This document shows positions 9,120 through 61,850 of a stretch of DNA of 64,000 nucleotides, piece after piece. Origin of the DNA: Octopus sinensis (Eukaryota); assembly GCF_006345805.1 (NCBI RefSeq), contig NC_043014.1, positions 19,406,001-19,470,000 of the forward strand. The letters run 5' to 3'. The position numbers and the translations under genes are program-made. The notes beneath the pieces were generated by a model. That model made no database searches, was not told the origin of the DNA, and saw only the letters and a list, made by a program, of their open reading frames with translations. Numbering within the stretch: the stretch's first letter is position 1; every line of letters starts with the position of its first letter.

Positions 9120-9700
9120 CAGCACAGACTAGAGCCTCTGTTTCCAGTTTTAAATCACTTTTAGTCACCTACAACCATTTTTTCTGTCTATCTTATCTTC
9201 AACATCCCTATGAAATTGACCATGCATTCTTTCCTTTACCCACCTATTTTCAGTTTCATTCGTTTTCAATTTCTTGTACAGTGCTTTATCTTCGCAATCT
9301 TTCATCCTACACAAGCTTGACTTTACTACTTCTAAAAGTAGCGGTTCTGTGGCCTTTTCACATACCATGCTATGTTCTTTTCTTCTGCTCTAATGCTGTG
9401 TTCACATCCAATAAGTCGTCTTCCCCTTCTTTTTCTTGGTACATACAAGCTGTCTGTATCACTTTTTGGGTGGAGTGACCCATATCTAGTTAGCAACTTC
9501 CTTGTCTTTCTGTCTAAGCTGTTAAGTTTTTCTACTGTCCATGCGATCACCCTTGCTCTATATCTAACGAGTGAAACCGCCCAGGTTGATAGCGCCAGAT
9601 TGATAGCTTCGATCTTATTCTGTCCGTTTAATTTCAACTGAAGGATCAGTCTCTGTCTGCGCAAGTACTCCAACTTAAATTTTTCTGTCATTTTGCACAC
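9120..9700 (-). pseudogene. Non-LTR retrotransposon fragment (R4/Dong-like, post-RT region)
   Basis: KLEYLRRQRLILQLKLNGQNKIEAIN..TWAVSLVRY..LDRKTRKLLT..LHPKSDTDSLYVPRK.., then KERMHGQFHR; frameshifted. Confidence 0.85.
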
Positions 9701-9861
9701 AGTCGGACAGAGGGACAAACCAACGCCGATGAAAACATAGCCGCCTTCCTTGGCGGAGGTAATAACAAATACATACATACGTACAAACATACCTTCCTAC
9801 CTACCCACTTACCTAACTACCTACATGCATACATACATACATACATACATATTATATATAC

Positions 9862-11294: not shown

Positions 11295-11347
<53 letters not shown>

Positions 11348-11566
11348 AATATTAAAATTTTAAAGTTTCTCTAAAGAAGACTACGGCAGTGGTACTGGAT
11401 ATTAATAGTTATCGCCAAGCTCATTTGGCAGTCTATAAATATAGGACGAATACTGCCTTTAATTAGCTTCAAGAGGCCATCGCCTTTAGCTAGCTATGTG
11501 ACACACGAACCTGTGTCCATTATAACCTTCGAACAGGGGAGGTCAGCCGCTTCCCTTTGCTGGTAG

Positions 11567-11610
11567 GCACTTGCAGACTAGTTTCAGGGTATTTGCCCCT
11601 TATCAATGCA

Positions 11611-11614
<4 letters not shown>
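11567..11614 (-). ncRNA. Hammerhead ribozyme motif with U3:A8 core pair
   Basis: gcactgca-TTGATAA-gggg-caaata-ccct-GAAA-ctag-TC-tgca-a-gtgc. 8-bp stem I with a bulge, palindromic ACTAGT stem III, GUC triplet. Confidence 0.7.
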
Positions 11615-11650
<36 letters not shown>

Positions 11651-28490: not shown

Positions 28491-28672
28491 ATATATATAT
28501 ATATATACGTATATATATATTTATACTTTATGAATTCTAGCAACATGCTTGATGTGAAATCGTTAGCTGAAACAGATATTGCTCTGCTTGGGGATGTTCC
28601 TAATCTGTCAATCAAACATATGCACTATAAATTTGGTCTTTACTTCATCATTGTTATTATTTTTCTATCTGT

Positions 28673-28717
28673 CTCAAAGCTCTTTCGTCACACTGATCCT
28701 GTGACCTCTTCAACAAC
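28673..28717 (-). ncRNA. Hammerhead ribozyme-like motif, C3U and weak stem I
   Basis: gttg-TTGAAGA-g-gtcaca-ggatcag-tgtgac-GAAA-gagc-TT-tgag. Perfect 6-bp stem II. Confidence 0.55.
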
Positions 28718-28964
28718 TCTTCATCTCACGTATTTCCTCTTCTTCTACTTACAGCATTTTGTCCTTCTATAGTATGTATCTTTATATGCGCAGTTATTTG
28801 TATTTTGTTTTGTGTGCATGTATGAGTTTGCCTATTTCACTTTCTGTACTCGTAGTTTTTTTTTACTTTATTCGATTATATACTTATTTATCTGTTTATA
28901 CCTACATACATACATACACATACATACATACATATATGTATATATATATATGTATGTATGTATG

Positions 28965-48542: not shown

Positions 48543-48817
48543 GATATAGACATACTGTAATACAATTTAAAATAAGTAACTTGATGTATGTTTAATGTCA
48601 TGTTATACATAAAATCAGTATAACATGAAGCTGAAGGATTATTCAATACTTTTAGTAAAGTGTTTATTAAAATTTTAGTTGTAAAACGTCGACTGTGACT
48701 GCGACGCTTCGGTCTCCGCACCTTATATATATATATATATATATATAAACAATTGCAGCGTGGAAGGTGTTTATAAACCACAAAAACCGTTAGATTCACT
48801 TCAACATTTAAATTTAA

Positions 48818-48868
48818 TTTGTCGAAATATTTTCGTCGCTTTCAGACCGCGACCTGTTCACTGACAAA
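48818..48868 (-). ncRNA. Hammerhead-like motif with G3:C8 core pair, inside an inverted repeat (48748-48932)
   Basis: tttgtca-GTGAACA-g-gtcgc-ggtctgaaa-gcgac-GAA-AATATT-T-cgacaaa. Stem II gtcgc/gcgac, palindromic AATATT stem III, stem I tttgtc/gacaaa. Confidence 0.6.
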
Positions 48869-49055
48869 GTGAATCTAGCGGTTTTTGTGTGTTTCTTAAA
48901 TGGCTTAAAAACACCTTGACGCTGCAATTGTTATCGTTCCAGCACACGATCTCAGACCAAGTCACTTGCTATGCAAGTACATCTCCGTAATATATATATT
49001 CTTTTTTTCTTTCTTTTCTTTTTTAAGTTTCAGCTCAGAGCTGCGGCCATGCTGA

Positions 49056-60629: not shown

Positions 60630-61850
60630 CAATTATGGGTGGCTTGTCTGGTATTCTTTGAAGGAATCTATCCAGACTCTGTTTGAAGTGATGGATCCTT
60701 TTCCTCTTTGATCTCCCTCGGGACAATGTTAATAGGGCAGGGCCTGTTGAGGAAAGAAATTATGTTGCAGTGTACATGTATGTTGTGATCTTGAATTTGG
60801 CAGGGGACGTATAGCCCGTGGTCCAATCTCGGATGAACCTTGAAGCTAATGTTTAGGTCGTTTGGGCAAAGTTTGGCGGTATATTTTTCCACATCGTACA
60901 AATGATGTACCGCTCACGGCCGACGCTGGAGGGAGTAAAGTTTCAAGGCTTTAAGGCGATCCCAATAGTCGAGAGCTCCCTGCCTTCAATTTGTTTTAGT
61001 GAGAGCCCTCTGGGGGTGACTCAATTCTGGAGATGTTTTGTCTTGTGTGAGGAGACCACAGTGGGCAGCATGTATTCAAGGTGTGGCCGTACAAAGGATG
61101 AAAAAAGTGGTATGATGACACACCTTGTTCTCTGGACCGGAAAGTTCTTAAGATCCAGGAACTCATCCTACGAGCTGTATCGACCTTCTTTTGATGTGTG
61201 CGCTCCAACTGAGATCGTCATAACAATTACACCCCAGGTCTCTGATATGTTAGAGGCTGTGAGCGGTTCCCCTGAAGGAAGAGAGTATGGTTGCTTTAGT
61301 GAGGAATTTCTTCCAAAATGCATCAGCTCAAATTTTCCCTCATTCAGTTGCATTTTGTTTCTGTCTGCCCATTGACTCACAGCATATAGGTCAGACTGGA
61401 GTTGAGTTCGGTCTGCTTCTTCATTGACGATTTGCTGGAGCTTAGTGTCATCAGCGAATATTTCACTTTGCAGTGATGTCGACCTGGAAAGGTCGTTTAC
61501 ATAAATTATGAAGAGTAGCGGACCAAAACAGTTCCCTGGGGAACACCGCTGGTGACTTTTGCTGGGTTTGAGTGGACTCCATCAACTACAACATGTTTGT
61601 TTTCTATTCTCTAGAAATACTGAATCCAGTGTAGAACTTTTCCACGGATTCCAACATTTGCCAATTTGAGAGTAGGATGTTATGGTCTACCCTGTCGAAC
61701 GCTTTACTGAAGTCAAGGTATATGACGTCAGAGTTCGAACCTGTTCCCAAGCTTGAGTACATCTTCAATGTGGTGTAAGAGCTGTGTTAGACAGTCCCTG
61801 CCACAGCGAAAGCCATGTTGATTTGAATTTAGGAGTTTGTGGGTCTCCAG
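60630..61850 (-). pseudogene. CR1/L2-like LINE reverse transcriptase, frameshifted
   Basis: DVIYLDFSKAFDRVDH, SGVPQGTV(fs)GPLLFIIYVND, FADDTK, WADRNKMQLNEGKFELMHFG. Confidence 0.9.

Follow-up and report, generated by a model that had tools for sequence, protein, structure and literature searches.

Organization of the Locus

The window, a 64,000-nucleotide stretch of Octopus sinensis contig NC_043014.1, is eukaryotic in character and rich in microsatellites. Positions 48748..48990 are occupied by an insertion that consists of two 5'-truncated ends of Penelope-like terminal repeats (pLTRs) in opposite orientation, both of which align to a full element of the same family, L296, and to the family alignment. 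The sense pLTR end (48748..48870, minus strand, 82% to L296) carries a hammerhead motif. Its terminus is the shorter of the two found in the family (124 of 286 copy ends), and its start codon region has suffered a 13-nt deletion. The inverted pLTR end (48868..48990, plus strand, 90% to L296) begins downstream of the motif and includes the tail. At 48900..48990 (plus strand), the beginning of the element's open reading frame (ORF) survives as a broken piece of its first codons, with everything beyond about 48932 being tail; at the loci L130, L255 and L263 this sequence continues into the reverse transcriptase (RT)-endonuclease ORF. A (TA)n tract lies at the edge of the insertion (48724..48747), as similar tracts flank many other copies. 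No Penelope ORF was found within the 64-kb window.

Sequence and covariation with relatives define a minimal type I hammerhead on the minus strand (48818..48868), composed of stem I, core, stem II, a palindromic stem III and U17. The 5' arm of stem I (48868-48862) is followed by the core GUGAACA (GTGAACA in the DNA, 48861-48855), with G3 at 48861 and C8 at 48856. An extra G (48854), of the kind described in PMC4209133, separates A9 from G10.1 and is present in 106 of 112 family copies. Stem II contains five base pairs (GTCGC/GCGAC, 48853-48849 and 48839-48835, pairing probability 0.84-1.0), including G10.1:C11.1, and encloses a 9-nt loop II (stem and loop together, 48835..48853); its 10.4:11.4 pair, which is G:C in this motif, reads A:U in the sister families. 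GAA (48834-48832) and the palindrome AATATT (AAUAUU in the RNA, A15.1 to U16.1, 48831-48826) come next, the latter being the predicted intermolecular stem III in the dimer model of PMC4209133 and PMC6765202. Cleavage is predicted after U17 (48825; U in 111 of 112 copies), i.e., at 48824..48825, and the 3' arm of stem I (48824-48818) completes the motif. The sequence-only reading had placed GUGAACA between stem I and a 5-bp stem II, followed by GAA and AATATT, and this arrangement is confirmed on the minus strand between 48868 and 48818. The extra G between A9 and G10.1, U17 and the extent of the insertion to 48990 had been overlooked.

The window copy itself is very probably inactive. Its stem I starts with an A.C mismatch next to the core (N1.1 is C, while the family has U), followed by six good pairs. 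Stem I of this copy is broken; in the predicted fold of the whole insertion it reaches a probability of at most 0.12, and the core, trapped in another hairpin, is paired to the inverted arm. The arms between which the motif had been placed are present (48748-48801 and 48867-48932, 73% identity over 67 columns with a 13-nt gap), but they are no part of the ribozyme; they are the product of the usual inverted, 5'-truncated insertion of the element.

Other remnants of mobile elements are found elsewhere in the window. On the minus strand of 28507-28739, a sister Penelope family has left a decayed pLTR end, complete with tail and a hammerhead-like motif of its own (U3, G8, stem II GTCAC). A decayed piece at 11344-11615 (minus strand) is 75% identical to a repeat in L188, whose hammerhead motif has U3:A8 and the palindrome ACGCGT; in the window piece the hammerhead motif is broken. 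By eye, the ORF list suggests non-LTR reverse transcriptase remnants at 9332-9796 and 61168-61581 (minus strand).

The Parental Element

The insertion almost certainly derives from a Penelope-like retrotransposon, whose minimal hammerhead the motif represents. This element had gone unrecognized in the sequence-only reading, of whose predictions those open to checking were borne out, with the swapped core extending to the whole family. The ORF was reached by extending copies upstream and contains RT- and GIY-YIG-type motifs; the sequence behind the motif corresponds to the ORF start, and the tail continues into the ORF. The full element L296 contains, in this order, a motif, an ATG, the ORF (608 + 475 amino acids, interrupted by a single frame break) and a second motif, 4.36 kb from the first. 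The two motifs, at 2060 and 6421, flank the ORF, and the motif therefore lies in both direct terminal repeats (pLTRs). In all six loci checked, a motif is located 915-1054 nt behind the ORF end.

At L128, a 1042-amino-acid open frame contains DKSG, YVDD and VYQIKC..YIGET, which we take to be the motifs of an RT and, at the C-terminus, of a GIY-YIG endonuclease. A Pfam search with 37 aligned homologues detected RVT_1 in eight and GIY-YIG in six of them, while a 722-amino-acid segment of the ORF gave no Pfam match and the element's protein no match in the PDB. The best named protein relative is labelled Octopus vulgaris and matches another family in the same genome at up to 99%. Penelope families of O. 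vulgaris are listed in PMC13282606, and ribozymes are not mentioned in the accessible part of that source.

The element shares a single ORF with RT and C-terminal GIY-YIG domains, as well as pLTRs, with the EN+ Penelope-like elements (Craig et al. 2021, bioRxiv 10.1101/2021.04.23.441226). Inverted 5'-truncated copies, a tail at one end and insertion into microsatellites are further common traits; the combination of an inverted truncated copy and a one-end tail is seen in L095, L096 and the window. Between the RT and the endonuclease lies a cysteine cluster (C-x3-C-x2-C-x7-C) such as the same preprint reports for Neptune and Nematis, two groups without named references in the protein tree built here. 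The octopus element differs from the EN+ elements in its tail, which measures about 58 nt instead of 30-40 nt and corresponds to the distance between the two peaks of the bimodal copy 3' ends (124 and 158 of 286), and in that no intron was seen, whereas some Penelope-like families carry one in the pLTR (bioRxiv 10.1101/2021.04.23.441226).

The G3:C8 Core Is a Family-Wide State

When a 750-nt pLTR stretch was put through 3000 dinucleotide shuffles, no such hammerhead motif with any Watson-Crick 3:8 pair appeared, and the motif was absent from 20 of 20 shuffles of the window even when stem I was not required, which excludes a chance origin. A pattern that joins the core to stem II and the palindrome yields 4103 exact matches in the genome, as compared to none for the reversed control. 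An Rfam search at the gathering and E-value thresholds returned no hammerhead, only microsatellite-driven microRNA matches; as relatives with a canonical core are likewise not matched by an Rfam hammerhead, this is a weak test for minimal motifs.

The frequency of the swap was determined in 112 copies from loci that had been located with an upstream anchor, with the protein of the endonuclease or with the start of the ORF, and hence were not selected on the core (L063-L147, L236-L265 and L296-L298; alignment across the motif was required). Duplicates were removed by context, so that segmental duplicates and both arms of one insertion are still included, while heavily decayed copies are lost from the set. 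G3 is present in 111 of the 112 copies and C8 in 100 (G in nine, A in three), with both in 99. Positions U4, G5, A6, A9, G12, A13, A14 and H17 are kept in 109-112 copies, stem I is closed by U1.1 (109/112) and A2.1 (108/112), and A15.1 and U16.1 each occur in 85 of 86 copies, a count that precedes the removal of duplicates. GTGAACA and an intact stem I are thus the family consensus, as the sequence-only reading had proposed for checking. These counts identify the swap as the state of the master copy and the A.C mismatch, which had been noted as a caveat, as a real peculiarity of the window copy.

The hallmarks of minimal hammerheads in Penelope-like elements, i.e., an extra nucleotide at 9/10.1, G10.1:C11.1 and a palindromic stem III, are all present, and the letters of the CUGANGA core that the family does not match are those replaced by G3 and C8. 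On the sequence level, the family motif therefore matches the minimal Penelope hammerhead in every feature tested except C3 and G8. By dataset labels, four organisms carry the stretch; in one run per organism, with the loose ends of contigs listed, the swapped core was found whole in three and in two parts in the fourth.

Two candidate subgroups were rejected. A variant G3:C8 family with a different stem II had four matches, all of which turned out to be mutated copies of the same family. A surviving intermediate subfamily with G3.G8 was considered as well, but is not supported: copies with G8 have different loop types and do not group in the tree, which is poorly resolved and in which G8 needs 17 changes for 20 tips as compared to a mean of 19.4 after shuffling. 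Among the listed non-C8 copies, G8 is slightly in excess (35 of 98); a control C with matching context gave 22 of 100 (p = 0.04, tallied by eye), and the G8 copies do not form one subfamily.

Covariation of the 3:8 Pair Among Relatives

The canonical-core version of the pattern has 1744 matches in the genome (control: 6), and these belong to sister families that share the extra G and a homologous tail and have GTCAC/GTGAC as stem II. Remnants of the endonuclease were found upstream of the canonical-core copies at 5 of 20 loci. Some canonical-core motifs have the same four letters before the core and differ from the octopus family motif over 17 nt only at positions 3, 8 and 10.4.

Related proteins are encoded at 14 metagenome loci, 10 of which reach the protein end and were examined. 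Behind the ORF, a motif was found in five of these (three by script, two by eye), with C3:G8 in two and U3:A8 in three; the other five had no motif or an unclear one. All 12 motifs tabulated have a Watson-Crick pair at 3:8 (two G:C, seven C:G, three U:A) and G10.1:C11.1, the table including L139, for which the link to an ORF is unchecked. Since related elements contain C:G or U:A at the very same pair, positions 3 and 8 covary, and the swap is compensatory rather than a decay of the window copy. The earlier claim that a paired exchange of this kind does not reflect decay holds accordingly, with the family keeping G3 and C8 and its relatives carrying C:G or U:A.

In a quick protein tree with a midpoint root, from which a third family of the same genome was left out, the G3:C8 family is sister to a C3:G8 family (SH-aLRT 92) and is placed among C:G and U:A relatives. 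This position makes G:C most simply the derived state. Sites that vary between subfamilies are absent from the core and stems (0/42) and frequent in loop II (4/8; p = 0.0003), where the changes may represent few events. Compared to the 3' flank (7/138), core and stems are not significantly more conserved (p = 0.20).

The sister families have a short and bulged stem I and lack the palindrome. In the ORF-linked copies of sister family B (L196-L215), located about 500 nt behind the ORF end, position 9 is a non-canonical C and 18 of 20 read CTGATGCG; short copies found by pattern have A9, and the metagenome relative L149 has C9. The combination of C9, a bulged stem I and an absent palindrome in sister family B suggests that catalytic demands are relaxed in this clade. 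Another metagenome relative, L148, contains a C3:G8 motif behind its ORF, but with U15.1:A16.1 and a TAGCTA palindrome.

Folding, Copy Ends and a Possible Mechanism

For an intact copy, the predicted fold contains both stem I and stem II, at probabilities of 0.93-1.0 (about 0.7 for the outermost pair). At -28.8 kcal/mol, the dimer fold is barely below that of two monomers, and another two-strand fold lies lower (-32.7 kcal/mol). This near-equal stability is in line with the low rates of minimal Penelope hammerheads (PMC4209133).

The 5' ends of copies cluster before the motif: 69 of 286 alignments start within ten positions about 22 nt before G3 (L296:2042), a figure that is inflated because most loci had been chosen for holding the core. 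Among the copies that start at AGATG with foreign sequence upstream, 20 of 22 (two of which share a lineage) have a G where the element has C or T, and no longer shared sequence was found upstream of them. We take the extra G to be a copied cap; a literature search on cap-derived G found no paper. Its position 22 nt before the core suggests a capped transcription start, with a very short spliced exon as the alternative reading. The hot spot does read like a branch point followed by a splice acceptor, but the GAG|GT donor is absent from the pLTR in six of six copies; an intron reading, while conceivable, is not supported. Four runs contained no spliced joint, but as their contigs show neither ends nor splicing, they provide no evidence either way, and no RNA dataset was listed among those in which the stretch occurs. 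Of 71 starts downstream, two fall within 2 nt of the predicted cut (about four expected for a flat distribution), a test that the choice of loci limits to second arms. The lack of a pile-up at this site makes uncut RNA the apparent main template.

These data are compatible with a mechanism in which transcription starts about 22 nt before the core, as the cap-like extra G would indicate, and two motifs pair via the palindrome into a dimer. G12 and the 2'-OH at position 8 would then catalyse the cut after U17, while the reversed 3:8 pair would hold the catalytic core in place. Cutting would remove a capped leader of 58 nt, 56 nt before the start codon. Most insertions were seemingly copied from uncut RNA, and cutting would thus probably serve as a slow side step, or else as a means of control, and would not be the source of the template 5' end. 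Judging from the sequence, measurable cleavage by the family motif is rather likely. As a whole, the locus is probably best described as a 5'-truncated, partly inverted Penelope-like insertion with a family-wide G3:C8 minimal hammerhead, for which slow self-cutting as a dimer is likely in the family and inactivity is likely in the window copy. A more specific proposal, in which the G3:C8 hammerhead, placed just within the capped RNA start, is a working ribozyme in at least four species and serves as a slow decapping switch between uncut template and cut RNA with changed translation or turnover, is tentative and would more probably turn out wrong than right.

Alternative Explanations

The strongest competitor, though still an unlikely one, is a true hammerhead descendant with negligible cleavage, whose fold is kept for a non-catalytic job such as binding of the element's protein, folding of the template or control of translation. 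It would account for copy ends that do not pile up at the cut and for C9 in sister family B and in L149. Hammerhead core mutants of an Anolis Penelope element had no effect on insertion in vitro (PMC11167929), and the in vitro rates of such motifs are very low (PMC4209133), both of which fit a non-catalytic role. However, none of the predicted helices includes the 3:8 pair, which is part of the known active conformation (PMC8495972), and its preservation as a Watson-Crick pair in three forms is consistent with selection on a catalytic core.

It is improbable that both changes go back to drift in a single master copy, the founder of a family that spread for other reasons, with the retained pairing being mere luck. 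Any state can be reached in thousands of copies through one master lineage, which means that the copy number is not independent evidence; within the family, moreover, conservation of the core and stems does not exceed that of the flank (p = 0.20), and a single origin of G:C is seen here. Nevertheless, in comparison with the closest canonical motifs, the core differs only at the two pairing partners, stem II was altered by a compensated pair as well, and, by eye, the first 100 listed of 221 non-G3 matches include no family-type copy with C3 and G8.

Very little speaks for the 185-nt unit being a MITE or a microRNA-like hairpin with a chance motif between terminal inverted repeats: its long hairpin folds at about -75 kcal/mol and has a weak Rfam match to MIR812 (E = 1.8), yet arm lengths and junctions vary among copies, the tail is found now on one side and now on the other, and each arm stems from the same pLTR end of an RT-bearing element. 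Since both arms map to L296, this reading is refuted; the fixed terminal inverted repeats, the uniform structure and the missing RT link of a MITE are not seen either.

Comparison with Known Hammerheads

The closest counterparts of the octopus motif are the minimal hammerheads of Penelope elements (Cervera and de la Pena 2014, PMC4209133), which include a natural U3-A8 variant in the Cercyon elements of Schistosoma. Both are of type I, occur in both pLTRs and have an extra nucleotide at 9/10.1 and G10.1:C11.1. In both, a palindrome replaces stem III, H17 is often U, and most copies are truncated and occur singly or on opposite strands. They differ in the 3:8 pair, which is G:C in the octopus family, and in stem I, which has 7 bp there. 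No G3:C8 motif is contained in the 56 rows of Fig. S3 in the extracted text of PMC4209133, all of which begin with CUGA or UUGA. Natural core variants were also reported by Perreault et al. 2011 (PMC3088659); they likewise show natural covariation at 3:8, but in the part of that work available here as U3-A8 only.

The swap itself is known from laboratory mutants. In the hammerhead of the Anolis Penelope element Poseidon, C3G/G8C partly restores cleavage, while the single mutants are dead (Frangieh et al. 2024, PMC11167929), and the rescue of hammerhead cleavage by C3G/G8C is a general observation (reviewed in PMC8495972). In these studies the exchange was engineered, whereas here it is the natural state of a family with at least 4103 copies. 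Natural U3:A8 and rescue by engineered G3:C8 are therefore known, and a natural, family-wide G3:C8 is apparently new: in the literature, as far as the sources extended, it was found in engineered form only, and a 2017 survey of Penelope-associated variants and its supplements may list it. The octopus family thus shows, in nature and throughout a family, the core swap that had been introduced in biochemical work to prove the 3:8 pair, and the related elements form a series of C:G, U:A and G:C at one site.

As foreseen in the sequence-only reading, searches with a fixed CUGANGA core miss the motif. At least 4103 motifs are overlooked in this way in a single genome, and genomic hammerhead counts may consequently be too low. 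Claims that some Penelope families lack hammerheads may likewise be understatements. Furthermore, since the copy ends point to a start site of the RNA and to uncut RNA as the form that is inserted, the role of the Penelope hammerhead becomes directly testable.

Non-LTR retrozymes (Li et al. 2026, bioRxiv 10.64898/2026.07.22.740005) resemble the octopus motif in having type I hammerheads derived from pLTRs. The family ends also occur in a few short tandem arrays reminiscent of retrozymes (e.g., L298 and L250; compare the same preprint), whereas the window copy is a single inverted insertion and not a tandem array. Such retrozyme-like arrays of pLTR ends, with units of about 170-400 nt, are found at L298 (5738-4770, minus strand), L250, L252, L253 and L260, and several of them have G or A at position 8. 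Five motif copies spaced 2.5-3.2 kb apart at L093-L094 were rejected as full elements, as they belong to a tandem duplication together with another repeat. At L297 (7481-6273, minus strand), the element is located directly behind the RT-endonuclease frame of what appears to be another Penelope-like family.
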